From positions 744,020-808,019 of the forward strand of contig CAZSXR010000001.1 in assembly GCA_964611335.1 (NCBI GenBank): 64,000 bases of DNA, written 5' to 3'. Within the stretch, counting starts at the first letter, position 1. Each line of letters begins with the position of its first letter. The notes below the pieces were generated by a model that was given only the letters and a program-made list of their open reading frames with translations, ran no database searches and was not told the origin of the DNA. Below are positions 31,246 to 64,000 of this stretch, one piece after another. Source of the DNA: an uncultured Pseudobdellovibrionaceae bacterium (GTDB taxonomy: Bacteria; Bdellovibrionota_B; Oligoflexia; Oligoflexales; Bog-1112). Position numbers and translations under genes: made by a program.

Positions 31246-31315
31246 TCAAATGTCGAGGTCACTTCATCTGAATTCTTCACCTTTGGTGTAGAAAGGCGTT
31301 GTTGATCTCGACTTT

Positions 31316-34785: not shown

Positions 34786-34908
34786 TGCCTTTTAGGACTA
34801 TATTTAAAAACCGCTTGTTTTTTCTTTGCAGATGTAGTGAAAAAAGCGAGCAGATCATGTAAGATATTTTTTTTTTCAAGCGTCCGAAGGAAAGAGGAAT
34901 CACCGTCT

Positions 34909-38203: not shown

Positions 38204-39703
38204 ATGTTTAAAATCTTATTCTTTGTTTCCATACTCTTATCCTGTGCCAAAACTCCCGAAGCTCCTATGCACACACCTTGGACAGCCTCCTTAAGTGCTT
38301 CGAATTGCTCTGGTCCTGGTTTGGCTTTGGTGGGTACAGATACGAATGCGAATACGAGTACAAACCTCATTGTTCCTGTCCCCTTGAATCAACTTACGAT
38401 GACAAATTTAACAGTGCAATCTGCAGTTCCTTTTCCTTCTTTACCTAATTTTACCTTGCTTGCTGTGAGTGCAACGGTCAATGATGCTATGGGTGGTTAC
38501 ATTCAAGTTTTTGTGTCTCCTCGCAATTCTAGTGAGAAAGTTCCTTCGAATGCGCTTCGTTGGATTCCTCTTTCTGCAGGAACTTACAAAGTCAGCGCCT
38601 ACCCTTGTAACAGTTTAGGTTGTAGAAAGGATTTGGAACAGATTTTTCCTTACCTGCAAGTTGCTGCTAATCCTGCAACCGTTCAAGCTATAGGTCCTAC
38701 ATTCACACAATGTTATAACATTTTACAGAAACTTCAGGATGCAGGGACTACGATTGTAGAATATGCGAAAGGTTTGGAAACATACTTTCAATCTTATGGT
38801 TCAGGTCTGCATCTTGCAGATTCTTGTATGACAGGAGCTTTGAACTCTGCTGCTCAAAGTATGCAGAACATTCAAACTTTAGGCCCTTCTTATATGGGGG
38901 AAATCGCTTCCAACGCAGACGCTCTGCATGCAGAGAATCAGCAGCTTTTAAATCTGATTGCAAATCAGCAAGCAGTTGCGAATGCATCATCAAACAAAGT
39001 GACTACAGTTTCTGAAACGACGACGACGACTGCAACGCAGACTTCGAGTTCCCATTCGTCTACTGCGGGTAAAGCTGTACTTCTCAGTTTGGGTGTAGTC
39101 GGGATTGTGACAGGTCTCATAGCTGCTGTTACAGCAGGGACGGTGAAGACTATGGGTTGGACGAATGTGATTGGGAATTTAGAAGTGACTGTAGAGAAAA
39201 TGTCGAAGAAGATTATAGCTGCGAATTTATCTACAGCTGCTTTTAGAAAACTTATGGAGGAGCTGAAGTTAGATAGTGAGTTAAAAACAAAGTTGGAAAA
39301 TAAGGTAGGTACTTTGAGTGGATCGGTTGAGGATATTGCAAAATTACAGACAGAGCTCACACCACAAAGCAAAATGTATGCAAATCAGAAAACTTTACTC
39401 AACAGAGCTTCTATAGGGGGCATTGCTGGAATTGCTGTTTCTATCGCAGGTGCTATAGCAGTCGGAGTATCCCAATTATCTTTGGTAGGAACAAATTCTG
39501 TTTCTTCAACATCTACTCAGAGTAAAATTACAAGCAACACCAACACCAGCACCTCCACAGATACCAGTACTTCCAAAACAAATGCGGGTAATCCTTTCGA
39601 TCAAGCTTCCGATTATTTTACGAAAGTTATATTTCCCCTACAGCAGCAGTTCCGTGACTGTACTGTAAGTCTTTACGACAAAGTTCTTACTGCTCCGAAG
39701 TAG
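38204..39703 (+). CDS. hypothetical lipoprotein-like membrane protein with two TM helices flanking a coiled-coil segment
   Basis: 499 aa with lipobox ILLSCAK and S/T linker TTTTTATQTSSSHSS. TM1 is AVLLSLGVVGIVTGLIAAVTAG, followed by a charged segment, then TM2 IGGIAGIAVSIAGAIAVGV and an S/T-rich tail. Same layout as 21332..23092. Confidence 0.65.
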   Translation: MFKILFFVSILLSCAKTPEAPMHTPWTASLSASNCSGPGLALVGTDTNANTSTNLIVPVPLNQLTMTNLTVQSAVPFPSLPNFTLLAVSATVNDAMGGYIQVFVSPRNSSEKVPSNALRWIPLSAGTYKVSAYPCNSLGCRKDLEQIFPYLQVAANPATVQAIGPTFTQCYNILQKLQDAGTTIVEYAKGLETYFQSYGSGLHLADSCMTGALNSAAQSMQNIQTLGPSYMGEIASNADALHAENQQLLNLIANQQAVANASSNKVTTVSETTTTTATQTSSSHSSTAGKAVLLSLGVVGIVTGLIAAVTAGTVKTMGWTNVIGNLEVTVEKMSKKIIAANLSTAAFRKLMEELKLDSELKTKLENKVGTLSGSVEDIAKLQTELTPQSKMYANQKTLLNRASIGGIAGIAVSIAGAIAVGVSQLSLVGTNSVSSTSTQSKITSNTNTSTSTDTSTSKTNAGNPFDQASDYFTKVIFPLQQQFRDCTVSLYDKVLTAPK

Positions 39704-45597: not shown

Positions 45598-45837
45598 AAC
45601 AAAATATTTCCCGATCGTTTGCGCATTCTCCTTGCAAAGATTCACCAGTATGCTGTTCGTCTTTTTCTTTTGCAAAAATGAGTGGTCGAGCACTCTCACT
45701 TTAAAAGGATTTTTAACGCACTGATTTTTAAAGAAATTATCATTTCTTTTTTTTAAAAAAATATTCTTAATTTTCATAATTAAAATGACGACAAGGAGTA
45801 TGCTCAGTGTCTGCCTAATTCAAGGAGGAGTCTTACT

Positions 45838-48183: not shown

Positions 48184-50595
48184 GTGTGTTTACGAAACAA
48201 CATAGTGCGATCTGTTTTAGCATCAGGCTTATTGATGTTCGTTGTTTTATTTTTACACTTAAGTTTAGAGTCCTGTTCTCGAGATGAGAAATCAAAAAGA
48301 GAAAGTGTACAAGTTCCTTTTTCAATCAGTAAAACAAACGCTCTTGCTTTGGAAGATTCAGAATCTTTGGATCTTGTTTCTAATGGAACAAACATTCAAA
48401 TTTCTGTGAGTGGATGTTCCAGTGGTTTTACGTATTCTACGGCAGGTATCAATTCGGGTGCTGTTAATCTTTATAAAGGCGATCAGAATTGTCTTGTAAA
48501 ATTGCAAAGTTTTGTTTTTGGAACCACAACCTATTCTGCAACAGCTACAGGTGCTACGAATTTTACAACGTGGACTCCAGGTAGTATGGCAACATTTGCA
48601 AATGTATCCTCATCCACAGATCTTATAAACGTTTTTATCAACACTCAGGTGACGTCGACCGGTGTCTTGGTAACAGATACCGTTTCTTATAACTTCACAG
48701 ACGTCACTGCGACAACAACACAGAACTTAAATCAAGCAAGTGTTTCCACTCCTGTTCCTCTTTCCGTGTCAGGAGCTGCAACACCATCTTTTACAATGAC
48801 TCAGGCAGTCACTCTGTTATTGAATGCAAACGGTTCTGCAAATATGACGTTCACTTTGCAATGTTCATCCGCTCTTACAGGATCTACTCTTCCCACTTAT
48901 GCGTGTGGTGGGGCAGTGTTGCAAACTCAGTTAGATTACATTCTTATAGCCGATGCCTATTCGCAAGGAGCTATTACGGAAGGACAGGCAAATGCGGCGT
49001 TTATTGCAAACACTCCGACGGCCATTGGATCTTTGATCATACCGACTGGTGGTGTGGATCTTTACAATAACACTTTAGCAAACGGTGGTTTTTATACGAG
49101 CACCAGCAGCCCTCTTGTGACAGGATCGGTATCTATATATCCAAGCAATCGCAACTATGTGTTTATGATTCGACGCAAAGATGTGAGTGGAAATGTTACG
49201 GGTTATCTTTATTTCTATGTAAATTTTCCAACGACACTTTCTGCGGAAGTTAGTGGATGCGGAACCACGTTTGCGGGAGGTGCAGGTACACTAACGAATC
49301 CCTATCAGATTGCAAATGCTTACTATCTTGCTAATACTGTGAACTGTACGTCCTCGACGACTTATTTTATACAAACAAATAATTTTGATCTTGGTGGTGC
49401 TGCAACGCCTTGGACACCTATACAACTTTATGGGCAATACAATGGGAATGGAAAAACGATTTCGAATCTCTATGTTTCCGGTGGAACAGCCACCAACGTG
49501 GGACTCTTTTCTATTATAAATTCAGGTGCAAGTATTTCAAGTTTAACTCTATCCTCTGTTAATATATCAGGTGGACAATATATAGGAGCTCTTGCGGCTC
49601 AGATGAGTGGAGGAACAGTTACAAGTGTGTCTGCGAGTGGAACTCTCGCTGCGAATTCCATTTCTACAGGTACGGGAATTGTGGCTGGAGGCCTTATAGG
49701 ATCAATGACTACTGGAACTGTGAGTTCCTCGTCTTCCTCCGTGAGTATCACTTACAATCCATCTACTACTAACACAGGTTCTATGTATTTTGGTGGTTTG
49801 ATTGCATCGATAGTTACAAGCACTTCGAACGCAACACTTACAAATTGCTTTGCCACGGGTTCCATTACAGCTTCTGGTGCTACAAGCACGAATGCGGGTA
49901 CAAGTTATTTTGGTGGGATGATTGCTTATGCATCTACCACAGGTTCTTCCGTAATCAGTGTGAGTCAATCCTATGCTACGGGTGCCCTAACTCTTAATTA
50001 TGCACCTACAACTTCAATGGCAACCTATATGGGTGGCTTTATTGGAGTAGCAACATCTGTGTGGCCTTCTAATGTGACGCTTTCGAAGAATTTTGCAACA
50101 GGTGCTTTGTCTTTTGTACATACAGCAAATACTGGCATTACTATGGGTGGTTTTGCAGGTGCGTTTAATAATGAGACTGCTAACAATAATTACAGTATGG
50201 GTTCTATCACTCTTACAGGGTCTGGTAGTGGAGGTGCTATAGGTGGATTTGTAGGTGCTTCTGCGAGTGGAAGTGCGGTTAGTACGTCGTATTCTGCTGC
50301 GGCTTCCATAAATATTTCAGGACTCTCTGTAAATCAGGGGGCATTTCAGGATAATTCAGATCCATTAACTGCATCGAATGACTACTACTATGCGAGTGGA
50401 AGTGTAGGCACCAACTCTTATTCGGGTGTTACGGGTCTGAGTTCTGCACAGATGATAGTTCAGTCTAACTTCACAGGTTTTGATTTCTCAACACCGATTT
50501 GGAGAATGCCTAGTGCAAATCCTTTATCACCAGGTGGCTTACTAAGTCCTGTGTTTAACTGGCAGTGCGGTAGCAACGGAATTACATGTATTTAA
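48184..50595 (+). CDS. GLUG-repeat lipoprotein, family member 4 (803 aa)
   Basis: GTG start 12 nt after the previous TAA, with GGGAG SD and lipobox LSLESCS. All family landmarks are present, including YSATATGATNFTTW. Ends WQCGSNGITCI. Confidence 0.85.
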   Translation: MCLRNNIVRSVLASGLLMFVVLFLHLSLESCSRDEKSKRESVQVPFSISKTNALALEDSESLDLVSNGTNIQISVSGCSSGFTYSTAGINSGAVNLYKGDQNCLVKLQSFVFGTTTYSATATGATNFTTWTPGSMATFANVSSSTDLINVFINTQVTSTGVLVTDTVSYNFTDVTATTTQNLNQASVSTPVPLSVSGAATPSFTMTQAVTLLLNANGSANMTFTLQCSSALTGSTLPTYACGGAVLQTQLDYILIADAYSQGAITEGQANAAFIANTPTAIGSLIIPTGGVDLYNNTLANGGFYTSTSSPLVTGSVSIYPSNRNYVFMIRRKDVSGNVTGYLYFYVNFPTTLSAEVSGCGTTFAGGAGTLTNPYQIANAYYLANTVNCTSSTTYFIQTNNFDLGGAATPWTPIQLYGQYNGNGKTISNLYVSGGTATNVGLFSIINSGASISSLTLSSVNISGGQYIGALAAQMSGGTVTSVSASGTLAANSISTGTGIVAGGLIGSMTTGTVSSSSSSVSITYNPSTTNTGSMYFGGLIASIVTSTSNATLTNCFATGSITASGATSTNAGTSYFGGMIAYASTTGSSVISVSQSYATGALTLNYAPTTSMATYMGGFIGVATSVWPSNVTLSKNFATGALSFVHTANTGITMGGFAGAFNNETANNNYSMGSITLTGSGSGGAIGGFVGASASGSAVSTSYSAAASINISGLSVNQGAFQDNSDPLTASNDYYYASGSVGTNSYSGVTGLSSAQMIVQSNFTGFDFSTPIWRMPSANPLSPGGLLSPVFNWQCGSNGITCI

Positions 50596-50607: not shown

Positions 50608-53517
50608 GTGAACTTAAGAACAAACATGGTCAACTTCAAACGCTTCATAGGCGCAAGTGTTGTTGTCGTTTCATTGTTTGTTCTTTTTCAAATTCTAGAA
50701 GCTTGTGGAAGACCAAACAGTGGTGGAAGTGCGTCAAGAGTTGCTATTCCCATTAGTGTTACAAAAAATTCAGGTACGGCTCTTAGTGAAGGATTGGAAC
50801 TTGTAAGCACAGGAACAACCGTCACAGTTTCTGTAGGTGGCTGTACCAGTGGTTTGACAGAAGCAACTACAGCTATTCCCGGTGGTACAGTAGCATTGTT
50901 TCTTCACGACACAAACTGTGCTGTTAAGTTGCAAACGTTCGTCTTCGGAACAACAACTTATTCTGCAACCGCAACCGGTGCTACAAACTTTACAACATGG
51001 ACGGCGGGAAGTGTTGCAACTTTTGCAAACACAGTTTTGTCTACAGACCGCATTAAAGTTTTCGTCAACACACAGGTTACGCAAGCTGGTGTAGTAAGCA
51101 CAGATACTGTGTCTTATAATTTCACAGATATTGCTTCAACAACGACGCAGAACTTGTCTGCAGTCCAAGTACAAACAGGCGTTCCCCTTGCTGTTACAAG
51201 TAGTAATTTAACTCCTTACTTTACAATGACAGCAGCTCGTGTTGTATCGTTTAACTCCAATGCCTCTGCAAACATGTCTTTCACCTTGCAATGCCAAAGC
51301 ACCGTCACAGGAAACACCGCAGCGAACTATGCTTGCAATGGAGCTAATCTTCAAACACAGTTTGATTATATCCTTGTAAAAGATAACTATTCACAAGGAG
51401 CGATTACCGTTCAACAGGCTATTGCAGCTTTTGCTGCGAATACACCTACCTCCGTAAGTACGCTTGTAGTGGGTCCAAATGGAAGTGATTTGAACTCAAA
51501 TGTTTTGCAATACGGTGGTTTTTATACGAGCAATGCAAGCCCTCTCGCAACGGGAACTACAGCTGTGTATCCAAGCAGTTTGAGTTATGTCTTTATGCTA
51601 AGACAAAAAACTACAGGAGGAAATGCAACAGGCTTCTTGTATTTCTATATAGAGTTTGCGCCATCTGTTCCTTCGGATGTCAGTGGTTGTGGAACTTTCT
51701 TTGCAGGTGGTTCGGGGATAGCGTCGGATCCATATATTGTTGTGAATGCAATTACTTTGTCGAATACGCAGTTTTGTAACACCTCTAGTACTTATTTTAT
51801 TCAACAAACAAACATAGATTTGGGTGGCGCTGCTACACCGTGGACGCCTATACCTCTTTATGGGCAGTATAATGGAAATGGAAAGACGATAAGCAATTTA
51901 TATATAAATGGTGGTTTGTCGAGCAATATAGGTTTGTTTGGTACCATAAATACAGGAGCCAGCGTTTCAAACCTTACCCTCACAGCAGCTGATGTGACAG
52001 GTGGTCAGACGGTTGGTGTACTAGCAGCTAATATGACAAGTGGAACTATAAGTAATGTTTCTATTGGTGGAACTTTAAACGTTATCAGTATTTCAGCAGG
52101 TGGAGTTGTTAATGCAGGTGGTCTTGTTGGTAATATGACAGGAGGGACTATTAGCAGTAGTGTTTCTTCTGTCACACTTTCTCTCACATCCTCTACGAAC
52201 AATGGAGCGACCGTCAATCTGGGAGGAATTATAGGTAATGCTTCTGCATCTGTAGCCGCTATTAGCTTGTCAAATGTTCAGGCTACAGGTTCTATCACAT
52301 CAAGTGCTGGTCAGGATACCAGTGGAACTTCATTTGCTTCGGGAGGAATTGTTGGAAGTTCTGCTGCTGGCGCCTTTTCGGTAACTATTACAAATTGTCT
52401 TTCTAAGGCGAATCAAACACATGGGTTCTATTTTTCAGGAGCTCAGACCCTTTATATTGGTGGGGTAGCTGGAATTTTTACAGGTGGGACAGTGTCTTCT
52501 TGTCTCGTGAGTGCGGCAATGACTCTTACAGGTCAGCCTGGGAATATGAACGTCTTTTTTGGAATGCTTTTAGGACATGGTGGCAATAATACAACGTCCG
52601 TTCAGAATTCAGTTGCTATGGGTTCTGCCAGTGTTTCGGGTTCTGCAGGTTCTGTCTCAGGAACTCTTGGAGGTTTGATTGGTTGTGGTGGTGCTAACCC
52701 TGGCATGAGCATGACAAATTCCTATGCAGCTAATACATCTTTAAGTGGAAGTACGCTTTCTATAGGACAAGTGCTAGGGGCTTGTTACATTAACGTAAGT
52801 AATGTGTATGTGTATAACAATGGAAGTGTGGGAAACAGTGGTGGAGGTATTTTTACAACGGGTTCTGTAACTGCCTACACCACGACAACACAAATGCAAA
52901 CGCAATCTAATTTCGCGTTCGATTTTTCTACACCTGTTTGGCGAATGCCTAATGCGGACCCATTATCGACTATATCTTTGCTTAGCCCAGTCCCTGCATG
53001 GGTTTGTGGAACCAACAGTGTGACTTGTGCCTTTAATACTGTGACGATCGCCAATGGATCATTCGAAACAGGAACCTTCAATGCAGGAAGTGGTGTTGCT
53101 AACCTCAATGCCGGTAACGGTACTCTTACAAGTTGGACTATTGGAGGGGGTGGAATCAAAGTTTTCAATACAATTGATCTTACATCAGCAGCCTCTATTT
53201 ACAGTGTAGATTTGAATGGAAGTGCAGGAACATCTGGATCCGTAAGTCAAAACATAACGACTGTTAACGGAACGACTTATACTTTCTACTTCGACCTTGC
53301 AGGAAACCCATCATGTGGAGCTAGTACTATGACGTTAACTGTTGCTGCAGGTGCTACTTCTCAGTCGTATTCATTTAATACATCAGGATTCAGCTCTACA
53401 ATTATGGGTTGGACGACGAAAACTTTTACATTTAAAGCGACAGCTGCTTCGACAGCTCTGTCGTTTACAAGTACAGTATCGGGAACGTGTGGTCCTATGA
53501 TTGACAATATTCACTAG
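50608..53517 (+). CDS. GLUG-repeat lipoprotein, family member 5 (969 aa) with C-terminal DUF642-like domain
   Basis: GTG start and lipobox ILEACG. Family landmarks are present. After AWVCGTNSVTC comes ANGSFETGTF..WTIGGGGIKV..VDLNG..YTFYFDLAGNPSCG..GPMIDNIH. Confidence 0.85.
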   Translation: MNLRTNMVNFKRFIGASVVVVSLFVLFQILEACGRPNSGGSASRVAIPISVTKNSGTALSEGLELVSTGTTVTVSVGGCTSGLTEATTAIPGGTVALFLHDTNCAVKLQTFVFGTTTYSATATGATNFTTWTAGSVATFANTVLSTDRIKVFVNTQVTQAGVVSTDTVSYNFTDIASTTTQNLSAVQVQTGVPLAVTSSNLTPYFTMTAARVVSFNSNASANMSFTLQCQSTVTGNTAANYACNGANLQTQFDYILVKDNYSQGAITVQQAIAAFAANTPTSVSTLVVGPNGSDLNSNVLQYGGFYTSNASPLATGTTAVYPSSLSYVFMLRQKTTGGNATGFLYFYIEFAPSVPSDVSGCGTFFAGGSGIASDPYIVVNAITLSNTQFCNTSSTYFIQQTNIDLGGAATPWTPIPLYGQYNGNGKTISNLYINGGLSSNIGLFGTINTGASVSNLTLTAADVTGGQTVGVLAANMTSGTISNVSIGGTLNVISISAGGVVNAGGLVGNMTGGTISSSVSSVTLSLTSSTNNGATVNLGGIIGNASASVAAISLSNVQATGSITSSAGQDTSGTSFASGGIVGSSAAGAFSVTITNCLSKANQTHGFYFSGAQTLYIGGVAGIFTGGTVSSCLVSAAMTLTGQPGNMNVFFGMLLGHGGNNTTSVQNSVAMGSASVSGSAGSVSGTLGGLIGCGGANPGMSMTNSYAANTSLSGSTLSIGQVLGACYINVSNVYVYNNGSVGNSGGGIFTTGSVTAYTTTTQMQTQSNFAFDFSTPVWRMPNADPLSTISLLSPVPAWVCGTNSVTCAFNTVTIANGSFETGTFNAGSGVANLNAGNGTLTSWTIGGGGIKVFNTIDLTSAASIYSVDLNGSAGTSGSVSQNITTVNGTTYTFYFDLAGNPSCGASTMTLTVAAGATSQSYSFNTSGFSSTIMGWTTKTFTFKATAASTALSFTSTVSGTCGPMIDNIH

Positions 53518-53526: not shown

Positions 53527-55905
53527 GTGTTGAATATAAGAAAGAACATGAGAAAACTAACGCGAAGCCAATTTGTATTCGTAATGGGAAGCGTAGGTAT
53601 GTTCTTTTTTATGAGTTTTGTACAATGTTCCCGAGATGACAGAGGTTCTCAAACAAAACTCAGTATACCTGTAAATCTCAACTATCTTGCGCCAACAACA
53701 TATAGACTAGATGAATCCAATCAGCAAGGTTTGGAACTCGTAGCAACTGCTACTAATTTGAGTGCTTCGTTAACTGGATGCTCAAGCAGCTTATCTTTCG
53801 GTACAACTCTATTGCGCGCGTCCTATATACAAGTCTTTCTTGGTGATACCAACTGTCTTTTGAAACTTCAAAGTTACGTAATCGGAAGCACAACCTATTC
53901 AGCAACAGCAACAGGTGCAACGAACTTCACAACGTGGACGGTGGGAAGTGTAGCAACCTTTGCAAACACAACATTGTCCACAGATACGATGAAAGTCTTT
54001 GTTGGTGCCCAGCTTACACAAACTGGAATTCTTTCTACCGATACAGTTGTCTATAACTTTACGGAGAGTACTGCAGCGCCAACTCAGAACTTATCAACGG
54101 CTACTGTATCTTTTCCTGTTCCTCTTTCTGTCTCAGGGCAAACGCCAAATTTTACATTTACTCAGGTACGTGAACTTTCTGTGAATGCAAATGGATCTTT
54201 CAACGTGTCTTTCACCTTACAATGCGCTGTCCCCGAAACAGGAGCAACAGGTCCCACTTATGCGTGTAGCGGAGCTATTTTGCAATCTCAGTTGGATTAC
54301 ATTTTTATTGCAGATGCGTATTCTCAAGGAACTATTACAAGCGCACAAGCGGCAACAGCTTTCACAGCTAATACTCCGACGGCAGTGGGAACACTCACAG
54401 TTGCGCCTGGTGGAACAGATTTGAATGGAAATACTCTCCCCAACGGTGGCTTTTATACAAGCAACTCAACACCTTTAGTTACAGGAACCACTGCTGTGTA
54501 TCCTAGTAACTACAATTATGTGTTTATGCTTCGTCAAAAAGATGCGTTTGGAAACGTACTCGGTTACATGTATGCGTATGTGGATTTTCCTCCCACTCCA
54601 GGAATTGCAGGTTCCTGTGGGGCTTATTTTGCTTCAGGTTCGGGAACTGTGGGAAGTCCTTATGTTGTGAACAGTGCTCAAACTCTGATGTACACAACTT
54701 TGTGTCAGTCCTCTTCGATTTACTTTATTCAGACTGCAACATTTGATTTGGGTGGATCTTCTACACCTTGGGTTCCTATTCCACTTTATGGGCAATACAA
54801 TGGTAACGGGTTTTCGATCACGGGACTCTATGTTAATAACGCAACTGCGAGTGCAAACGATGGGTTGTTTACAACCATCAATACCGGAGCTAGTGTTTCG
54901 AACTTAACTATTAGTTCGGCAAGTGTAACTTCAGCAGGAACAAACATAGGAATCTTAGCGGGTTCTTCAAGTGGTTCTATTACAGGTGTAACTGTGAGTG
55001 GAACTGTAGCAACTCAAGGTACTATTGCAACGACTGTGATTATAGGTAGTTTGGTAGGAAACTTAGCGTCAGGAGGAACGATCACAACATCTACCTCTAC
55101 AGCTAACGTGACATGGGGTGCAACAACATTGACAGGTACTACTGTACGGATGGGAGGACTTGTTGGAAACACTTCAGGAACTTCGATAACTTTATGCTCT
55201 TATGTGGGGACTATAACGGCAACGCAACGTGTTGGTACTTTTGTACTGAATGCTGTTGGTGGTTTGGTGGGATCTGTAACCGCAGGAAGTGTGTCTCAGA
55301 ACTATGCGATAGCAACGATGTCGGTAGACCCCAATACATCTTTAGGTCCCCAAGATATAGGAGGCCTGGTGGGTCAGACGGCAGCAAGCATTACACTTTC
55401 ACAAAACTATGCATCTGGATCTATGACGGTGACAAGAGTTGCAAGCTCAGCTGTATACAGTATTGGTGGTATGGTGGGACTAGCGGGTGCCACGAGCACG
55501 ATTATAAATTCCTACACGATGGTAACGATGAGTGTTACAACAGCAAGAACGTCAGACTTCTACGGAGGTTTTGTAGGGAAGGCTGTTGCTATAACCGATT
55601 GTTATTCTGCAAACCCAACGATGTCAACAACACAGGGTAACGCATTCGGTAAATCTACAGGCATCACAGGAACTATTACAACATCGTACTATGATTCCAT
55701 TGCAGGTTTGCCTACGCAGGGAGCCATCACAGGTTTGAGTGCTATCACTCCTGCAAATATTGCAACGCAAGGAAGTTTTACAGGATTCGATTTCGCAACG
55801 CCAATATGGAGAATGCCAAGTGCAAACCCACTTGCATCTCCGAATACAACTTTGAGTCCCGTCTTAAACTGGCAGTGTGGTTCGAATGGAATTACATGTA
55901 TTTAA
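53527..55905 (+). CDS. GLUG-repeat lipoprotein, family member 6 (792 aa)
   Basis: GTG start 9 nt after the previous TAG (AGGAG SD) and lipobox SFVQCS. Family landmarks are present. The 3' 0.94 kb belongs to the near-identical block family. Confidence 0.85.
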   Translation: MLNIRKNMRKLTRSQFVFVMGSVGMFFFMSFVQCSRDDRGSQTKLSIPVNLNYLAPTTYRLDESNQQGLELVATATNLSASLTGCSSSLSFGTTLLRASYIQVFLGDTNCLLKLQSYVIGSTTYSATATGATNFTTWTVGSVATFANTTLSTDTMKVFVGAQLTQTGILSTDTVVYNFTESTAAPTQNLSTATVSFPVPLSVSGQTPNFTFTQVRELSVNANGSFNVSFTLQCAVPETGATGPTYACSGAILQSQLDYIFIADAYSQGTITSAQAATAFTANTPTAVGTLTVAPGGTDLNGNTLPNGGFYTSNSTPLVTGTTAVYPSNYNYVFMLRQKDAFGNVLGYMYAYVDFPPTPGIAGSCGAYFASGSGTVGSPYVVNSAQTLMYTTLCQSSSIYFIQTATFDLGGSSTPWVPIPLYGQYNGNGFSITGLYVNNATASANDGLFTTINTGASVSNLTISSASVTSAGTNIGILAGSSSGSITGVTVSGTVATQGTIATTVIIGSLVGNLASGGTITTSTSTANVTWGATTLTGTTVRMGGLVGNTSGTSITLCSYVGTITATQRVGTFVLNAVGGLVGSVTAGSVSQNYAIATMSVDPNTSLGPQDIGGLVGQTAASITLSQNYASGSMTVTRVASSAVYSIGGMVGLAGATSTIINSYTMVTMSVTTARTSDFYGGFVGKAVAITDCYSANPTMSTTQGNAFGKSTGITGTITTSYYDSIAGLPTQGAITGLSAITPANIATQGSFTGFDFATPIWRMPSANPLASPNTTLSPVLNWQCGSNGITCI
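54970..55905 (+). repeat. copy A of ~0.94-kb direct repeat (3' block of family member 6)
   Basis: Aligns codon for codon with 57561-58496. I estimate roughly nine in ten bases identical over the stretches compared by eye. Confidence 0.8.
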
Positions 55906-56126
55906 GTGGAGCTAATTTCCTTGTTTGCCATAACTTTAGCGTAGATAGAGGATGAAGTCGGAGCGACAGAAGACGGATGTTAGCGACTCATAAGTTCTAG
56001 AAGCAGCGCATAACCGCATGAAAATACTGCAAAAAGATCATTTCTTAGAAATTCCCTCATTTTTTAACCCTTACATTACGATAAGTGTTTAGGATTCTTG
56101 TTTCTTTAAGAATCGGGGGCACGAGT

Positions 56127-58496
56127 GTGATCAGAAACGGTAGAAATCGAAGACCCTACTCTTTTGTATTGGCATCATTCTTTTCGATGTCGATGCTCTT
56201 CGTTTTTTATTTCACACTTAGTAAATGTTCTAATGATAGCAATAATTCTGAAAAAGTCAGCATTCCTGTGACTCTTAGCTACACACCCAAAACAGGTTTA
56301 GATCTTAGTGACTCCTTAGATCTCGCATCTAATGCAACATCTGTCAGTATATCTGTCACAGGCTGTGCAAGTGGTGCGAATTACCCTTCGCAGTTAAATC
56401 CTACAGGTGTTGTAAGTCTATTTGTTGGAGATAGAAACTGTCTAGTTAAGTTACAAAGTTTTGAAGTTTTTGGAACCATTTATTCAGCGACAGCAACGGG
56501 AGCGACAAACTTCACAACGTGGACTCCAGGAAGTGTTGCAACCTTTGCAAGTATAAGCTCGTCAACAACTACAATTAAAGTTTTTGTCGCATCTCAAGTT
56601 ACAGCAGCGGGTGTTCTGTCAAATGATGCAGTAACCTACACGTTTACCGATACGAGTTCCACAACAACGCAGAACATATCACAAGCGTCAATTTCAACTC
56701 CTGTTCCCCTTTCTGTATCAGGGCACACGGGTGAACCAAACTTCACTTTAACAGCAGCTCGTGCTCTCTCTATAAATGCAAACGGTTCCTACAATATGTC
56801 TTTTACTTTGCAATGTGCTGTTCCAGAGACAGGATCTACAGGCCCCACCTATGCATGCAGTGGAGCTTTATTGCAATCACAGTTTGACTATATATTGATT
56901 CATGATGCGTATTCACAAGGTGTTATCACTGTTCAACAAGCGAATGCAGCGTTCGTTGCAAACACTCCCACAACTGTGGGAACTCTCACGGTTGCGCCGG
57001 GTGGAAATGATTTGAATGGTAACAATCTCCCCAATGGTGGTTTTTACACAAGCAATGCAAGTCCTCTTGTAACAGGCACAACGCCTGTATTTTCAAACAA
57101 TAGGGACAATGTATTTATACTTCGACAGAAAACAACAGGTGGAAGTGCTACAGGGTATTTGTATTTCTACGTGAATTTACCGCTTATTTCTTCAAGTGTC
57201 AGTGCGTGTGGTGGTGCTTTTGCGGGTGGAGATGGAAGTGCAACGAGTCCCTACGGTGTGAACGATGTTACTACGTTGGCAAATGTGGATGCGTGTGGAA
57301 CATCTGCAACTTATTTTGTGCAACTTGCAACATTTGACTTAGGAGGTTCGGGAACGCCTTGGACTCCTATTCAGCTTAATGGCCAGTATGATGGAGGAGG
57401 ATATTCCATCACAGGTCTTTATGTAAACAGAACTACCGCAAGTGCAAGCGACGCTTTGTTTAGTAGTATAGGTACGGGTGCAAGCGTCGCGAATCTTACA
57501 ATAAGTTCGGGAAGTGTAAGTTCCTCAGGAACAAACATAGGCATGTTGGCAGGAACATCTAGTGGTTCCATCACGAATGTGACTGTGAGTGGCACCGTAG
57601 CAACACAAGGAACCATTGCATCGACGGTCATTATAGGTGGTTTGATTGGAAACTTAGCGACTGGTGGGAGCATCACAAGCTCGAGTTCAACAGCAAGTGT
57701 GACATGGGGTGCAACAACATTGACAGGAACGACAGTACAAATGGGAGGTCTTGTTGGAAATACTTCAGGGACATCGATTACTTCGTGCTCTTACGTGGGA
57801 ACTATAACGGCAACGCAACGTGTTGGTACTTTTGTACTGAATGCAGTCGGTGGTTTAGTAGGATCTGTAACCGCAGGAAGTGTGTCTCAGAACTATGCAA
57901 TAGCAACGATGTCGGTAAACCCCAACACATCTTTAGGTCCTCAGGATATAGGAGGCTTGGTGGGTCAGACGGCAGCAAGCATTACACTTTCACAAAACTA
58001 TGCGTCGGGTTCTTTAACGGTGACAAGAGTTGCAAGCTCAGCTGTATACAATATAGGTGGTATGGTGGGACTAGCGGGTGCAACAAGCACGATTATAAAT
58101 TCTTACACGATGGTAACGATGAGTGTTACGACAGCAACAGCGACAGACTTTTACGGAGGTTTTGTAGGAAAAGCAGTTGCTATAACCGATTGTTATTCTG
58201 CGAATCCAACGATGTCGACGACACAGGGTAACGCTTTTGCAAAGGCATCGGGTGTAACAGGTACTGTTACAACGTCCTATTACGATTCTATTGGTGGCTT
58301 ACCTACTCAAGGAGCTATCACAGGTTTGAGTGCTATCACTCCTGCGAATATTGCAACGCAAGGAAGTTTTACGGGATTTGATTTCGCAACACCGATATGG
58401 AGAATGCCAAGTGCTAACCCACTTGCCTCTCCGAATACAACTTTGAGTCCTGTGTTGAACTGGCAGTGCGGTTCGAATGGAATTACGTGTATTTAA
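56127..58496 (+). CDS. GLUG-repeat lipoprotein, family member 7 (~789 aa)
   Basis: The track ORF starts at GTG 56085. By analogy with the paralog N-termini (x-I/L-R-N..), GTG 56127 (MIRNGRNRR..) is more likely. Lipobox FTLSKCS; ends WQCGSNGITCI. Confidence 0.8.
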   Translation: MIRNGRNRRPYSFVLASFFSMSMLFVFYFTLSKCSNDSNNSEKVSIPVTLSYTPKTGLDLSDSLDLASNATSVSISVTGCASGANYPSQLNPTGVVSLFVGDRNCLVKLQSFEVFGTIYSATATGATNFTTWTPGSVATFASISSSTTTIKVFVASQVTAAGVLSNDAVTYTFTDTSSTTTQNISQASISTPVPLSVSGHTGEPNFTLTAARALSINANGSYNMSFTLQCAVPETGSTGPTYACSGALLQSQFDYILIHDAYSQGVITVQQANAAFVANTPTTVGTLTVAPGGNDLNGNNLPNGGFYTSNASPLVTGTTPVFSNNRDNVFILRQKTTGGSATGYLYFYVNLPLISSSVSACGGAFAGGDGSATSPYGVNDVTTLANVDACGTSATYFVQLATFDLGGSGTPWTPIQLNGQYDGGGYSITGLYVNRTTASASDALFSSIGTGASVANLTISSGSVSSSGTNIGMLAGTSSGSITNVTVSGTVATQGTIASTVIIGGLIGNLATGGSITSSSSTASVTWGATTLTGTTVQMGGLVGNTSGTSITSCSYVGTITATQRVGTFVLNAVGGLVGSVTAGSVSQNYAIATMSVNPNTSLGPQDIGGLVGQTAASITLSQNYASGSLTVTRVASSAVYNIGGMVGLAGATSTIINSYTMVTMSVTTATATDFYGGFVGKAVAITDCYSANPTMSTTQGNAFAKASGVTGTVTTSYYDSIGGLPTQGAITGLSAITPANIATQGSFTGFDFATPIWRMPSANPLASPNTTLSPVLNWQCGSNGITCI
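57561..58496 (+). repeat. copy B of ~0.94-kb direct repeat (3' block of member 7)
   Basis: Offset of exactly 2388 bp to copy C. 58059-58450 reads identical base for base to 60447-60838 (392 bp). Mismatches elsewhere are scattered. Confidence 0.9.
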
Positions 58497-58514
58497 CGAA
58501 GAAGGAGTTTGGGT

Positions 58515-60884
58515 GTGAATCAAAGAGTTAACATAAAACCACGTTTCATCTTGGTGTCGGTATTTTGGATGCCGTTGTTAGCTCTTTTGTATTTTACTTT
58601 TCATTCTTGTTCTAATGATGAGAACTCCGATCTTGTTGCTGTTGAGATTCCTATTTCCGTAACCTACCAACCTTCTACAGAGCTTGCGCAAGAGGAGGAT
58701 TCCCTCGAACTTGTATCATCAGCAACGGTCGTCACGGCTTCTATTTCAGGTTGTTCAAGTGGATATACAGCAGGAACGACGGTTCAAACTTCAACTATAA
58801 CTATGTATCTGACTGATAAAAACTGTCTTGTGAAGTTACAAAGTTTCATCTTTCAAAACACAACGTATTCTGCAACTGCAACCGGCGCAACAAACTTCAC
58901 AACTTGGTTAGCAGGAGATGCTGCAAGTTTTGCAAGCACAGCATCTTCTACCAATGTAATTAAAGTCAAAGTCGGTACGCAGGTTACACAAGCGGGTATA
59001 CTGAATACAGATGTAGTATCCTATCTCTTTACAGATATTTCTTCAACCACCACTCAAAATTTAACACAGCCTTCTGTCTCAACACCTGTTCCTCTTTCCG
59101 TTAGTGGGAAATCACCAAACTTTACTTTGACTGCAGCGAGAACTCTTGCAATCAATGCGAATGGTTCGTACAGTGTTTCCTTCACTTTGCAATGTGGTGT
59201 TTTGCAAACGGGATCTGGTGCAACTGCTGCATGTGATGGTGCAACGTTACAGGCTACAACACCTGCGCAACTGTCTTATATATTTATACCGGATGTTTAT
59301 TCTCAGGGTGCACTTGATGTTACACAATTAACAGCAGCTTTCGGTGCGAATACGCCAACAAGTGTGGGTACACTGACTGTGAACCCTGGTGGTGCAGATT
59401 TAAATGGAAACACTCTGACAAACGGTGGATTTTATACAAGCAATGCAAGCCCCCTTGTAACAGGAACGACACCAGTTTATCCGAGTGCTTTGAACTACGT
59501 GTTTATGCTTCGACGATCAGATTCTTTCTCAAACGCATTGGGCTATTTATATTTCTATGTAACCTTTCCTTCTTTCTCTTCTCTCGTTAGTGGATGTGGA
59601 ACTACGTTTGCAGGTGGAGCAGGAACTGCAGCAGATCCTTATGGGGTTAATGATCGTACGACTTTAGCAAACACCGTAAACTGCGCAACATCTGCAACTT
59701 ATTTTGTACAAACTGCCAATATAGATTTGGGTGGTTCTGGAAACCCATGGATACCTATTCAACTCAATGGCCAGTACAATGGAAATGGAAATTCTATCAC
59801 AGGACTTTATGTAAACCGTTCGACAGCAAGTGCAAGCGACGCTTTGTTTACTAGCATTGCTACGGGAGCGAGCGTTTCAAACTTAAATATTACATCTGCG
59901 AGTGTATCGTCTGCAGGCACAAAAATAGGCATTCTTGCGGCAGATGCAAGTGGTTCCATCACGAATGTGACTGTGAGTGGCACCGTAGCAACACAAGGGA
60001 CCATTGCATCGACAGTCATCATAGGTGGTTTGATTGGAAACTTAGCGTCGGGTGGAAGCATCACAAGCTCGAGTTCAACAGCAAGTGTGACATGGGGTGC
60101 AACAACATTGACAGGAACGACAGTACAAATGGGAGGTCTTGTTGGAAATACTTCAGGGACATCGATTACTTCGTGTTCTTACGTGGGAACTATAACGGCA
60201 ACGCAACGTGTTGGTACGTTCGTACTGAATGCAGTCGGTGGTTTAGTAGGATCTGTGACCGCAGGAAGTGTGTCCCAGAACTATGCAATAGCAACGATGT
60301 CGGTAAACCCTAATACATCTTTAGGTCCTCAGGATATAGGGGGCCTAGTTGGTCAGACGGCAGCAAGCATAACGCTTTCGCAAAACTATGCATCGGGTTC
60401 TATGACGGTTACAAGAGTTGCAAGCACAGCTGTATACAGCATTGGGGGTATGGTGGGACTAGCGGGTGCAACAAGCACGATTATAAATTCTTACACGATG
60501 GTAACGATGAGTGTTACGACAGCAACAGCGACAGACTTTTACGGAGGTTTTGTAGGAAAAGCAGTTGCTATAACCGATTGTTATTCTGCGAATCCAACGA
60601 TGTCGACGACACAGGGTAACGCTTTTGCAAAGGCATCGGGTGTAACAGGTACTGTTACAACGTCCTATTACGATTCTATTGGTGGCTTACCTACTCAAGG
60701 AGCTATCACAGGTTTGAGTGCTATCACTCCTGCGAATATTGCAACGCAAGGAAGTTTTACGGGATTTGATTTCGCAACACCGATATGGAGAATGCCAAGT
60801 GCTAACCCACTTGCCTCTCCGAATACAACTTTGAGTCCGGTGTTAGACTGGCAGTGTGGTTCGAATGGAATTACGTGTATTTAA
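58515..60884 (+). CDS. GLUG-repeat lipoprotein, family member 8 (~789 aa)
   Basis: The GAAGGAG SD is 8 nt before GTG 58515; track TTG 58509 is only 2 nt from the SD. Lipobox FTFHSCS. The 3' block is near-identical to member 7. Confidence 0.85.
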   Translation: MNQRVNIKPRFILVSVFWMPLLALLYFTFHSCSNDENSDLVAVEIPISVTYQPSTELAQEEDSLELVSSATVVTASISGCSSGYTAGTTVQTSTITMYLTDKNCLVKLQSFIFQNTTYSATATGATNFTTWLAGDAASFASTASSTNVIKVKVGTQVTQAGILNTDVVSYLFTDISSTTTQNLTQPSVSTPVPLSVSGKSPNFTLTAARTLAINANGSYSVSFTLQCGVLQTGSGATAACDGATLQATTPAQLSYIFIPDVYSQGALDVTQLTAAFGANTPTSVGTLTVNPGGADLNGNTLTNGGFYTSNASPLVTGTTPVYPSALNYVFMLRRSDSFSNALGYLYFYVTFPSFSSLVSGCGTTFAGGAGTAADPYGVNDRTTLANTVNCATSATYFVQTANIDLGGSGNPWIPIQLNGQYNGNGNSITGLYVNRSTASASDALFTSIATGASVSNLNITSASVSSAGTKIGILAADASGSITNVTVSGTVATQGTIASTVIIGGLIGNLASGGSITSSSSTASVTWGATTLTGTTVQMGGLVGNTSGTSITSCSYVGTITATQRVGTFVLNAVGGLVGSVTAGSVSQNYAIATMSVNPNTSLGPQDIGGLVGQTAASITLSQNYASGSMTVTRVASTAVYSIGGMVGLAGATSTIINSYTMVTMSVTTATATDFYGGFVGKAVAITDCYSANPTMSTTQGNAFAKASGVTGTVTTSYYDSIGGLPTQGAITGLSAITPANIATQGSFTGFDFATPIWRMPSANPLASPNTTLSPVLDWQCGSNGITCI
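59949..60884 (+). repeat. copy C of ~0.94-kb direct repeat (3' block of member 8)
   Basis: See copy B. Confidence 0.9.
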
Positions 60885-60899
60885 CAGAGGAGTTTGAGT

Positions 60900-63284
60900 G
60901 TGAAATGGAAGTTTGAAATGTTTAAAAGAATAGCGATGGTTTCCACCTTTTGGATATCTCTCGCTATGTTTTTGCATTTCACTTTTGAAGCTTGCTCAAA
61001 TGATTCTAATAACAATGCAGAGACAGTGAATATACCGCTCAAAGTTTTATACACAGCTTCACAAAATTTAGATCTTCAAAACCAAGGAGAATTGGGACTT
61101 GTCAATGGAACTGTACAAATTATTTCTGTTGCTGGATGTGCCAGTGGATTTGCACAAGCACCTGAGGTGGATGACTGGGGTTATGTCACTCTTTTGTTGA
61201 AAGATAGAAACTGTCTTGTAAAACTCAGTAGTTTTGTCTATGGAACAACGACTTATTCAGCTACAGCAACCGGTGCAACAAATTTTACAACATGGTTAGC
61301 GAATGACACAGCAACCTTTGCAAGTATTACAAACTCTTCAGACCTTCTTCGTGTAGTTGTCACAGCACAAGTAACTCAAGGTGGTATTCTAAACACAGAC
61401 GTTGTGACTTATACGTTCAACACTATTGCTGCGACAACAACGCAAAGCTTAGCGCAACCTACTATTTCAACAGCTGTTCCTCTTTCTGTGAGAGGTAAGT
61501 CACCAAACTTTACTATGACAGCTGCTAGAACCCTTACGATTAATGCAAATGGTTCTTACAGTGTATCGTTCACTTTACAATGTGGTGTTTTACAAACGGG
61601 ATCTGGTGCAACTGCCGCATGCGATGGTGCAACGTTACAGGCTACAACGCCTGCTCAAGTCGATTATATATTTATACCGGATGCCTATTCACAGGGTGCC
61701 ATTACAGAAGCGCAAATGGCTTCAGCTTTTGGTGCTACTACACCAACAAATGTGGGTACATTGACTGTGAACCCTGGTGGTGCAGACTTAAACGGAAATA
61801 CATTAACGAATGGTGGATTTTATACAAGCAATGCAAGTCCTCTAGTAACAGGGACAACACCCGTCTATCCGAATGCATTGAACTATGTGTTTATAGTTCG
61901 TAGAAGAGATACCTTCTCTAATGCTTTGGGCTATCTATATTTCTATGTAAATTTCCCATCGCAATCTATTAATGTTAGCGGATGTGGAACTTACTTCGTA
62001 GGAGGTTCCGGTACATCCATAGATCCTTATCAAGTGGCAGATCGTGCAACTTTAGCAAACACAGCTTTATGTACAAGTTCCACAACCTATTTCTTACAAA
62101 CAGACAATATTGACTTGGGTGGTTCAGGAAACCCTTGGACACCTATACAACTCTATGGTCAGTACAATGGGAGTGGATACAATATTACGGGACTCTATAT
62201 AAGCAGTACAACAGGAAGCGGTGGTGCAAGTTTTGGTTTGTTCAGCACAATGAACACAGGTTCTAGTGTTTCCGATTTGAACCTTGTTTCTGTAAGTGTA
62301 ACTGCAGCAGGTTTGAACGTCGGAGCCTTAGCAGGAAATGCTAGTGGTTCAGTAACGAATTGTACAGTGAGTGGAACAGTCACGACGGGTGCTGCTGCAA
62401 TTTCTCAAAACGTGGTGATGGGAGGGCTTGTTGGAAATTTAGCGACAGGTGGAACGATTACGACTTCTAATTCAACAGCAAGTGTATCGTGGGGGACGAG
62501 TACTTTATCAGGAACACGTACAGTGCAAGTGGGTGGGCTTGTTGGTAATACTTCAGGAACTTCCATTACACTCAGCTCTTATGTCGGTACGATCAGCGCA
62601 ACCGAAGCGGTGGGAACGTTTACGCTCAATGCAGTTGGTGGATTGGTTGGTTCTGTTACAGCAGGATCTGTTTCACAGAATTATGCAATTCCTACAATGA
62701 CAGTGACTCCAGGTACGTCCTTAGGACCTCAAGATATAGGTGGACTTGTAGGTCAAACAGCTGCAGGTATTACTCTGACACAAAATTATGCTTCAGGTTC
62801 TATCACTGTAACAAGGCCAGCAAGTACTGCAGTCTATAGTATAGGAGGTATGGTAGGTCTTGCTGGAACAACCAGTACTATTTCAAATTCCTATACGATG
62901 GTAACGATGAGTGTTACGACAGCAACAGCGACAGACTTTTACGGAGGTTTTGTAGGAAAGGCCGTTGCTATAACCGATTGCTATTCTGCGAATCCATCGA
63001 TGTCGACAACGCAGGGTAACGCTTTTGCAAAGGCATCAGGTGTAACAGGTACCGTTACAACATCCTATTACGATTCTATTGTAGGCTTGCCTACTCAAGG
63101 AGCTATCACAGGTTTGAGTGCCATAACTCCTGCGAATATTGCAACGCAAGGAAGTTTTACAGGATTCGATTTCGCAACACCGATATGGAGAATGCCAAGT
63201 GCTAACCCACTTGCATCTCCGAATACAACTTTGAGTCCAGTCTTGAACTGGCAGTGCGGTTCGAATGGAATCACATGTATTTAA
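60900..63284 (+). CDS. GLUG-repeat lipoprotein, family member 9 (~794 aa)
   Basis: The GAGGAG SD is 8 nt before GTG 60900 (the track ORF starts at TTG 60894). Lipobox FTFEACS. The N-module shares a long near-identical stretch with member 8 (ANGSYSVSFTLQCGVLQTGSGATAACDGATLQATTPAQ). Confidence 0.85.
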   Translation: MKWKFEMFKRIAMVSTFWISLAMFLHFTFEACSNDSNNNAETVNIPLKVLYTASQNLDLQNQGELGLVNGTVQIISVAGCASGFAQAPEVDDWGYVTLLLKDRNCLVKLSSFVYGTTTYSATATGATNFTTWLANDTATFASITNSSDLLRVVVTAQVTQGGILNTDVVTYTFNTIAATTTQSLAQPTISTAVPLSVRGKSPNFTMTAARTLTINANGSYSVSFTLQCGVLQTGSGATAACDGATLQATTPAQVDYIFIPDAYSQGAITEAQMASAFGATTPTNVGTLTVNPGGADLNGNTLTNGGFYTSNASPLVTGTTPVYPNALNYVFIVRRRDTFSNALGYLYFYVNFPSQSINVSGCGTYFVGGSGTSIDPYQVADRATLANTALCTSSTTYFLQTDNIDLGGSGNPWTPIQLYGQYNGSGYNITGLYISSTTGSGGASFGLFSTMNTGSSVSDLNLVSVSVTAAGLNVGALAGNASGSVTNCTVSGTVTTGAAAISQNVVMGGLVGNLATGGTITTSNSTASVSWGTSTLSGTRTVQVGGLVGNTSGTSITLSSYVGTISATEAVGTFTLNAVGGLVGSVTAGSVSQNYAIPTMTVTPGTSLGPQDIGGLVGQTAAGITLTQNYASGSITVTRPASTAVYSIGGMVGLAGTTSTISNSYTMVTMSVTTATATDFYGGFVGKAVAITDCYSANPSMSTTQGNAFAKASGVTGTVTTSYYDSIVGLPTQGAITGLSAITPANIATQGSFTGFDFATPIWRMPSANPLASPNTTLSPVLNWQCGSNGITCI
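62343..63284 (+). repeat. copy D of direct repeat (3' block of member 9; 5' half more diverged, 2 extra codons)
   Basis: From ~62890 onward it is very close to copies B and C (for example a 66-bp identical run acgatggtaacgatgagtgttacgacagcaacagcgacagacttttacggaggttttgtaggaaa). The last 200 bp is a patchwork of A-type and B/C-type variants. Confidence 0.8.
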
Positions 63285-63298: not shown

Positions 63299-64000
63299 GT
63301 GAGCATAAGATTACACATCGATAATAGATCTACACGTCTGATTCTGACGTCCGTGTTTTGGATATCGATGCTTTCCCTTTTACCTTTTGTAATCGATGCT
63401 TGTTCGAATGATGAAAATAATGATGCTTCGAGTTATGAAATACCTGTAAGTATTATAGATACAAATTCGCAAAGTTTAGAAATTCAAAATTCAGATGAGA
63501 ATTCTCTAGGTCTTGTTAATGGTACGAATCCTGCAGTGGCAGTTACAGGTTGTGCAAGTGGAAACACTCAACTTGCGCATATTATTACGAGTACGGTCAC
63601 ACTGTTACTTAAAGATAAAAACTGTCTTGTAAGACTTGTAAGTTTTGTCTACTTAACAAACACCTATTCCGCAACGGCGACAGGAGCTACAAACTTTACA
63701 ACATGGTTAGCAAATGATACAGCGACTTTCGTAAATGTGAATACATCTACCGATACTTTGAAAGTTACTGTGACGGCTCAGGTTACTCAATCGGGTGTGT
63801 TGAATACCGACGTGGTGACTTATAATTTTCTTACGAGCACCTCTTCTACAACGCAGACTTTAGCAGCTCCTCTCATACAAACAGGGGTTCCTCTTTCCGT
63901 TAGAGGAGTAACTCCAAACTTCACAATGGCCGCAGCGCGGTCTCTTTCTGTGAATGCAAATGGTTCCATAAATATGTCTTTCACTCTCGAGTGTGGGGTT
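63299..64000 (+). CDS. GLUG-repeat lipoprotein, family member 10 (5' part only; runs off the right edge)
   Basis: Absent from the ORF track (no stop in window). My translation from GTG 63299 (GAGGA SD) gives VSIRLHIDNRSTRLILTSVFWISMLSLLPFVIDACSNDENN...VTGCASGN..DKNCLVRLVSFVY..YSATATGATNFTTWLANDTATF...NMSFTLECGV. Confidence 0.8.
   Translation, partial: MSIRLHIDNRSTRLILTSVFWISMLSLLPFVIDACSNDENNDASSYEIPVSIIDTNSQSLEIQNSDENSLGLVNGTNPAVAVTGCASGNTQLAHIITSTVTLLLKDKNCLVRLVSFVYLTNTYSATATGATNFTTWLANDTATFVNVNTSTDTLKVTVTAQVTQSGVLNTDVVTYNFLTSTSSTTQTLAAPLIQTGVPLSVRGVTPNFTMAAARSLSVNANGSINMSFTLECGV

Follow-up and report, generated by a model that had tools for sequence, protein, structure and literature searches.

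Which part of a tandem family of envelope lipoproteins is constant, and which part is exchanged? The question is raised by a 64,000-nucleotide (nt) stretch of contig CAZSXR010000001.1 (the window) from an uncultured Pseudobdellovibrionaceae bacterium, in which ten tandem paralogs (m1 to m10) fill the sequence from 39.7 kb to the window end at 64 kb. Each paralog is laid out as a signal peptide with a lipobox-like Cys, a module of 316-330 amino acids (aa) and a GLUG-like region of about 430 aa. In a first-pass annotation, the N-terminal module was taken as a specificity-determining head on a conserved GLUG stalk. The analysis presented here favors a different reading with moderate confidence, namely that the module would be a lipid-anchored, probably disulfide-stabilised base carrying interchangeable C-terminal binding domains. 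The argument starts from position: the module, either alone or with added C-terminal domains, is always found beside the lipid anchor, so constancy belongs to the module, while exchange concerns the C-terminal units.

In the proposed arrangement, a signal peptide with a lipobox Cys would be followed by a short variable tether and then by two unrelated domains, all-beta and alpha/beta, respectively, both of which hold an invariant pair of Cys. In most relatives, the module is the entire mature protein, and in the window and some other genomes it would serve as a constant N-terminal base on which C-terminal units are swapped: GLUG beta-helix-like regions (one or two), DUF642/choice-of-anchor C, LamG, FN3 plus beta-propeller, or Ig-like repeats plus DUF1554. 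DUF642, LamG, FN3 and propellers are typical binding modules. The module would anchor these binding domains and space them from the membrane, and the Y..F..W loop of domain 1 and the GGFxT loop of domain 2 may carry a conserved interaction of their own. Gene conversion would have homogenised the 3' halves of m6-m9, the 5' halves being old and under purifying selection.

Organization of the Array and of the N-Terminal Module

As open reading frames (ORFs), m1 (39732-42608) and m2 (42733-45777) lie on the minus strand, and m3 (45838-48171), m4 (48184-50595), m5 (50608-53517), m6 (53527-55905), m7 (56085-58496), m8 (58509-60884), m9 (60894-63284) and m10 (from ~63290, cut by the window end at 64000) on the plus strand. 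The plus-strand ORFs are spaced by 9-12 nt in an operon-like single orientation, with the exception of a gap of 180-220 nt before m7; a promoter and terminator scan of this sole long intergenic gap (55905-56226) gave nothing above background.

The modules were located at 41520-42497 in m1 (326 aa, minus strand), 44491-45477 in m2 (329 aa, minus strand), 45898-46845 in m3 (316 aa, the most divergent one with 26-30% identity to the others), 48274-49257 in m4, 50704-51687 in m5, 53626-54615 in m6, 58608-59594 in m8, 60993-61982 in m9 and 63401-64000 in m10, those of m3 to m10 being on the plus strand. The Cys-framed module described earlier between the lipobox and CG..FAGG is therefore found in all ten paralogs, with only its first ~200 residues visible in m10 because of the window end. 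The ORF of m2 runs 100 residues upstream of the lipobox (45478-45777), and its true start is probably near Met61.

The GLUG-like region terminates in WQCGxNGIxC in the window paralogs. In addition, m1, m2 and m5 bear a C-terminal DUF642/choice-of-anchor C domain (Pfam E 1e-14 to 1e-21; TIGR04362 in NCBIfam) at 39732-40300 (minus), 42733-43200 (minus) and 53030-53517 (plus), respectively. DUF642 is a galactose-binding-like module that is usual in extracellular proteins, and in these three members it is more likely than the N-terminal module to be the distal tip.

The representative, m7, was dissected on its plus-strand translation. Its ORF opens with a GTG at 56085, and a second GTG at 56127 yields a normal signal peptide (56127-56225) with the n-region VIRNGRNRR, a hydrophobic core and the lipobox TLSK immediately before the Cys. 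The NCBI call (P0167, 767 aa) begins at an ATG at 56193, with which the basic n-region is lost, and the start codon is uncertain. The module (56226-57206, 327 aa) begins with the lipobox Cys and ends just ahead of CGGAFAGG, so that the span originally outlined, 56127-57200, corresponds to signal peptide plus module. It is followed by the GLUG/M26_N-like region with the Cys-capped tail WQCGSNGITC (57207-58496). In the window paralogs, this C-terminal part of ~430 aa gave weak matches to Glug (PF07581), Peptidase_M26_N (PF05342) and ZmpA (NCBIfam). No Glug, Peptidase_M26_N or ZmpA match was obtained inside 56226-57206, the Pfam matches being only at ORF residues of at least 391, and no protease domain was found.

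The Thr/Ser/Val/Asn-rich composition of the module was confirmed (T 14%, S 14%, A 9%, V 9% and N 8% in m7), and it is almost uncharged, with just 24 charged residues. Each quoted motif was found at its position in m7: GCASG (56361-56375), NCLVKL (56436-56453), FTLQC (56802-56816) and YACSG (56850-56864). They hold two Cys pairs, Cys47 (codon 56364-56366) with Cys72 (56439-56441) in domain 1 and Cys197 (56814-56816) with Cys211 (56856-56858) in domain 2. The conservation of both pairs was verified, the four Cys being invariant in 9/9 complete paralogs, and the second pair is only half visible in m10, at the window end.

The expected alternation of variable and conserved stretches was also seen. 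The islands YSATATGATNFTTW (56481-56522, an ordered conserved loop of domain 1), NGGFYTSNASPL (57033-57068, domain 2) and YLYFYV (57156-57173, domain 2) had been called invariant, which proved too strong: they are conserved, but m1 has FLYFQI, m3 has YNYWNI and NGGVSLST, m6 has YMYAYV and m2 has NGGFVTATGAGS. Within the window, few positions inside the islands never vary. As had been noticed, m2 and m3 keep only the skeleton, with the degenerate forms YYVTGINAVPFTTW and YTPSATHP-FTTW.

Predicted Structure and Sequence Searches

Two AlphaFold2 (AF2) models were obtained, model 1 from 35 sequences, with a predicted local distance difference test (pLDDT) of 84.9 and a predicted template modeling score (pTM) of 0.58, and model 2 from 135 sequences, with a pLDDT of 87.2 and a pTM of 0.69. 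Both agree in secondary structure, with an all-beta domain 1, a low-confidence linker and an alpha/beta domain 2. In m7, domain 1 (module residues 10-142, 56253-56651) has nine predicted beta-strands, the interdomain linker (residues 143-159, 56652-56702) has a pLDDT of 44-71 and is variable among the paralogs by entropy, and domain 2 (residues 160-317, 56703-57176) has seven strands and two helices. Cys47/Cys72 and Cys197/Cys211 are each confined to one predicted domain, and the two Cys of each pair are probably joined within their domain by a disulfide, with the periplasm as the site of oxidation.

A two-domain architecture with one Cys pair per domain is thus supported by the models. Of the two Ig-like or jelly-roll domains previously expected, the number of domains and their Cys pairs stand, while domain 2 is alpha/beta and not a plain Ig or jelly-roll fold. 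An origin of domains 1 and 2 by internal duplication was rejected, with an hhalign probability of 0.2%.

Searches for a named family were empty for the module. In Pfam-A, no family was matched by more than two of 35 members at E<=10, and the m7 module alone matched 0 families. NCBIfam gave nothing for the module in 14 proteins, including four full-length window members and eight stand-alone relatives, and PDB sequences gave no match to the module at E<=10, either with phmmer or with a 35-sequence profile. In addition, no description of the family was found in searches of the literature on GLUG, DUF642 and lipoproteins in these organisms. The earlier remark that the islands were recognised from no named domain family agrees with all these searches, and it is correct that the module belongs to no named family.

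The Wider Module Family and Its Architectures

A word-indexed search returned 26 relatives, and 25 of the 26 are proteins of 347-423 aa with their own signal peptide and lipobox, ending shortly after the YLYFYV strand. An exhaustive profile search against 1.84 billion representatives gave 468 clusters (50% identity) at E<=1e-3, and 356 at E<=1e-10. The similarity is far above chance (E down to 1e-140). The size of a module alone, 300-400 aa, was found in 116 of 163 family sequences, and the module is N-terminal in every multidomain architecture seen. It is followed by one GLUG unit, by two GLUG units (P0029, P0038), by GLUG and DUF642 (P0042), by Laminin_G_3 (LamG; P0141), by FN3 and beta-propeller repeats (P0156), or by long Ig-like repeats and DUF1554 (P0123, P0154).

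A hydrophobic stretch with a lipobox Cys, of the signal peptidase II (SPase II) type, was found in the ten window members and in 142 family sequences. Over these 142 members, the consensus is [LIFV]-x-[SAGN]-C-[GS], with L/I/F/V at position -3, S/A/G/N at -1 and G/S at +1; the Cys, conserved at 99%, has a median position of 25, and the tether between it and the first strand is 18 residues long in the median. At -1, unusual residues (K, Q, N) occur in some window members. In a MAFFT alignment of 135 sequences with a mean column identity of 16%, the four Cys are the only invariant columns, and the lipobox Cys, L33, G50, D69, L76, V119, P171 and G272 are near-invariant, in agreement with hmmalign. 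The family signature consists of the lipobox, GCxSG, DxxCLxKL, Y..F..W, F.L.C, a further conserved C and GGFxT.

Stand-alone members end in a conserved tail, ...(I/L)ASITQ(S/N/D/T), as in P0002, P0005, P0016, P0026 and others, and this tail is replaced by a variable linker in the fused proteins.

Stand-alone and fused forms are intermixed in a neighbour-joining tree of the module. The divergent m2 groups with the GLUG and DUF642 protein from another sample (P0042), m3 branches very deeply, and m4-m9 result from a local expansion. m1, m2 and m3 are old lineages. The same contig that holds the window also encodes the stand-alone paralogs P0005, P0006, P0010 and P0019. Mixed arrays occur in other loci as well: L009 has two members with two GLUG units each on the minus strand, and one stand-alone and three module-plus-GLUG members on the plus strand, whereas L007 has a stand-alone member, a member with GLUG and DUF642, and another stand-alone member. 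A split arrangement, with a GLUG-only gene beside a stand-alone module, was not seen, either in L007 and L009, which mix stand-alone and fused genes, or in L001-L004, whose conserved neighbour is a lipoprotein of 463 aa unrelated to GLUG. The closest non-window relative is P0001 (L005, 9908-12376), a module-plus-GLUG gene with 56% identity; it is split into ORFs of 562 and 250 aa by an interruption at ~11597-11623, and either pseudogene formation or faulty assembly could be the cause.

Taxonomic placement was possible only for relatives at four loci of metagenome-assembled genomes (MAGs) labelled Deltaproteobacteria or Pseudobdellovibrionaceae, that is, Bdellovibrionota; the genome scan behind them used only two subfamily-specific peptide patterns, so the taxonomic spread may be wider. 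Asn at -1 of some lipoboxes and the DUF1554 partner domain had raised the idea of a Leptospira origin, which is not supported, as the same scan gave no Leptospira locus. In the four MAG loci (L001-L004), a stand-alone module gene is followed directly by a conserved lipoprotein gene of 463-473 aa, with 39-54% identity between loci (L001 11990-13381, L002 10909-12330, L003 3639-5060 and L004 2222-3586). This lipoprotein was matched by neither Pfam nor NCBIfam and does not occur in the window, and its constant position hints at a partner in that branch. In L001, stand-alone module genes of 352 and 327 aa also lie in tandem.

An obligatory N-terminal place right after the lipobox in every architecture, together with ordered loops that are strongly conserved despite diverse cargo, could also be explained if the module served for sorting or docking. 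It would then be recognised by a partner or an envelope machine by which the lipoprotein is flipped, exported or held at the cell surface, or it would dock the paralogs through its conserved loops. The 463-473 aa neighbour in four distant genomes suggests a fixed partner. However, the arrays in the window, L007 and L009 have no candidate machinery linked to them, the neighbour does not extend to the window, and there is no precedent with detectable similarity. This explanation is considered rather unlikely.

Divergence, Gene Conversion and Selection

According to the explanation given first for this locus, the module would be formed by two disulfide-stapled beta-sandwiches with hypervariable loops, diversified for different targets and presented on a GLUG stalk. 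Tandem paralog arrays are indeed typical of variable surface proteins, and the module is clearly more divergent than the C region within m6-m9 (56-70% identity in the N-module, 77-91% in the C region), between m1 and m2 (33% and 59%) and between m3 and m4 (28% and 56%). In these comparisons, its designation as the variable part of the family holds. However, the order reverses when m4 or m5 is compared with m6-m9, with 54-60% identity in the N-module and 38-44% in the C region, so the GLUG part is the more divergent one in this case and is not uniformly the conserved part.

The contrast within m6-m9 is matched by low synonymous divergence (dS) and identical tracts in the 3' half. An exact tract of 392 nt is shared by m7 (58059-58450) and m8 (60447-60838), and along the co-linear 1290-nt GLUG regions of both genes, DNA identity starts at 66% on the 5' side and reaches 100% at the 3' end. 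The same 3' homogenisation is shared by m6 and m9 at 77-95%. Sliding DNA identity between the modules of m8 and m9 (58608-59594 and 60993-61982) is 80-89% in domain 2 and only ~50-55% in domain 1, and this jump indicates a recombination breakpoint near the interdomain linker. Among m6-m9, the N-module has a dS of 0.8-3.0, compared with 0.29-1.4 for the GLUG region, and for m8/m9 it falls to 0.76 in domain 2. Since the GLUG dS of m6-m9 is low and a 392-nt tract is exact, gene conversion would account for the pattern, rather than fast N-terminal evolution. The N/C contrast in m6-m9 therefore points mainly to segments of different age, produced by gene conversion whose breakpoints lie close to the boundaries of domains.

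Selection was evaluated with pairwise Nei-Gojobori ratios of nonsynonymous to synonymous divergence (dN/dS) and with proportions of nonsynonymous and synonymous differences (pN/pS) in 20-codon windows pooled over m4-m9. Across pairs and segments, dN/dS was 0.09-0.74, always below 1, and the signal of diversifying selection expected from a specificity head was not found in any of them. Among m6-m9, dN/dS was 0.22-0.49 in domain 1, 0.09-0.15 in domain 2 and 0.11-0.21 in the GLUG region; domain 1 has both the highest dN and the highest dN/dS of the protein, in favor of the head. No 20-codon window had pN > pS, with the first ~70 residues reaching 0.6-0.8. These ratios indicate purifying selection over the whole gene.

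The location of the variability was also compared with the models. The variable stretches are the tether, loop 21-40, hairpin 51-66, the interdomain linker (~141-170) and the linker to the GLUG region. Hairpin 51-66 is very variable, with an entropy of 2.3 at a pLDDT of 84, in favor of the head. Overall, paralog variability is not enriched in coil relative to strand (p=0.31) and anticorrelates with pLDDT (Spearman -0.67, p=2e-5), and thus it follows low-confidence linkers, whereas two of the conserved islands (module residues 86-99 and 270-281) are loops with a pLDDT of 94-97. The ordered loops are the most conserved of all stretches.

Besides these results, a head function is opposed by the location of the module next to the lipid anchor rather than at a distal position, by its constancy across unrelated C-terminal domains and its mostly stand-alone occurrence, and by the age of m1, m2 and m3, with m2 grouping with a protein from another sample. 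The specificity-head explanation is consequently judged improbable.

Structural Comparisons

In Foldseek searches, two AF2 models against PDB and one against BFVD, nothing was obtained at E<=1e-3. DUF3823 (4fxt, a Bacteroides lipoprotein) was considered and rejected, since it appeared at E 6e-3 with a root-mean-square deviation (rmsd) of 18.8 A for model 1 only and was outside the top 50 for the better model.

A beta-cup of the ML/GM2-activator type in the module or one of its domains, binding lipid or lipopolysaccharide, would explain the stand-alone lipoproteins and is in line with the recurrence of MD-1, MD-2, GM2-activator and NPC2, small disulfide-bonded beta-sandwiches as predicted for domain 1, as top PDB matches for both models and with the very few charged residues, but it is improbable, since the matches (all at E>=0.012, probability <=0.69, TM-score <=0.40 and rmsd 8-12 A, those to the ML domain having a best E of 0.035-0.05 with a TM-score of 0.32-0.40) are at the level of a generic beta-sandwich resemblance and no Pfam ML-domain match was obtained for 35 members at E<=10.

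The Module as a Proposed Membrane-Proximal Base

The base or spacer role that we infer for the module, together with its lipidation, disulfides and surface location, has several points against it. Domain 1 evolves faster than the GLUG region within m6-m9 (dN 0.43-0.55 compared with 0.06-0.16), and dS is saturated for most pairs, so rare site-specific positive selection could escape the pairwise tests. A pure spacer needs neither conserved ordered loops nor a frequent solo existence, and the module probably has an activity of its own. Furthermore, no confident structural homologue in PDB or BFVD links the module to a function, and its lipidation and its cell-surface or periplasmic location are predictions.

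Considering the frequent stand-alone form and the strongly conserved ordered loops, a conserved interaction of the module's own is very likely, such as one with a partner protein, an envelope component or the module itself.

Comparison with Known Systems

A similar arrangement is known for DUF1735, a beta-rich N-terminal domain that comes directly after the signal peptide of lipoproteins, with various binding or catalytic domains on its C-terminal side, Laminin_G_3 among them; it is proposed as a membrane-bound spacer and is present in many paralogs per genome (PMC11216935). Together with the BACON and SusE/SusF N-terminal domains of Bacteroidota polysaccharide-utilisation lipoproteins, DUF1735 shares with the module its placement and proposed spacer role. 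However, the likeness is a functional analogy only, without sequence relationship to DUF1735 (PF08522; no Pfam match in 35 members). The module is also found in a different phylum, its placed relatives being Bdellovibrionota-like MAGs; it is made of two unrelated domains (~320 aa) with four invariant Cys, is mostly stand-alone, and its context is not a polysaccharide-utilisation locus (PUL).

For other families, the likeness is partial. GLUG/Peptidase_M26_N proteins, such as the N-terminal region of ZmpA-type IgA1 proteases, resemble only the C-terminal 430 aa of the window paralogs. In the case of the ML domain and GM2-activator, it consists of small disulfide-bonded beta-sandwiches and recurrent sub-significant Foldseek matches, with no profile match.

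Regarding the array, Borrelia Vsp/Vlp and Mycoplasma Vlp are tandem surface-lipoprotein paralogs that evolve by segmental gene conversion. In the window, likewise, the lipoprotein paralogs are in tandem, their identity is mosaic, and neighbours share identical tracts. Unlike those systems, the array is homogenised in its 3' half, with purifying selection throughout and old paralogs that have counterparts in other genomes, no switching mechanism was seen, and the genes are packed 9-12 nt apart in one orientation, like an operon. The outcome is an unnamed lipoprotein domain family of moderate size, whose build and evolution are as in known multidomain envelope lipoprotein families.

Neighbouring Genes in the Window

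Directly upstream of the array, a 499-aa ORF (38204-39703, plus strand) starts with a lipobox-like sequence (LLSCAK) and contains stretches rich in Ser/Thr, two hydrophobic segments and, in its middle, a coiled-coil-like part. It was matched by no Pfam or NCBIfam family, and the other loci examined hold no homologue of it. Within the GLUG regions of m6 and m7, alternative-frame ORFs of 175 aa (55113-55640 and 57704-58231, plus strand) were found. They are Cys/Gly/Arg/Tyr-rich copies of each other and most likely are non-coding shadows of repeated sequence.

Farther from the array, a cluster of secreted and envelope proteins at 21332-34713 fits a protease-rich, possibly predatory lifestyle. It includes a protein with four Big_5 domains (24222-25661, plus), an OmpA-like beta-barrel protein (25622-26647, plus), an S8 subtilase with a PA domain (27021-30137, minus) and an M36-like metalloprotease with a proprotein-convertase P-domain (32257-34713, plus). 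Then comes the gene for ribosomal protein S4 (34768-35529), and right behind it are an IstB/DnaC-like AAA ATPase (35572-36465) and a 243-aa ORF without a family match (36462-37193). No tRNA or Rfam genes were found in the 64-kb window.

Implications

A family of 468 clusters without a Pfam or NCBIfam model is suited to a new domain entry and to structure determination. A constant N-module base tells experimenters which end of these proteins to swap or truncate. The m6-m9 genes also illustrate in detail that, when one half of a set of paralogs undergoes gene conversion, the other half can look "hypervariable".

A more far-reaching proposal, which we regard as speculative and rather improbable as a whole, is that the module represents a new two-domain fold family specific to Bdellovibrionota-like predatory or environmental bacteria, a platform that displays and perhaps exports surface lipoproteins, where the GLUG, DUF642, LamG and propeller arrays would be a repertoire for the recognition of prey or substrates, with gene conversion at the boundaries of domains reshuffling it. 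Should the host lineage be predatory, as in Bdellovibrionota-like bacteria, lipoprotein arrays with swappable putative binding tips would be candidates for cell-cell or substrate recognition.

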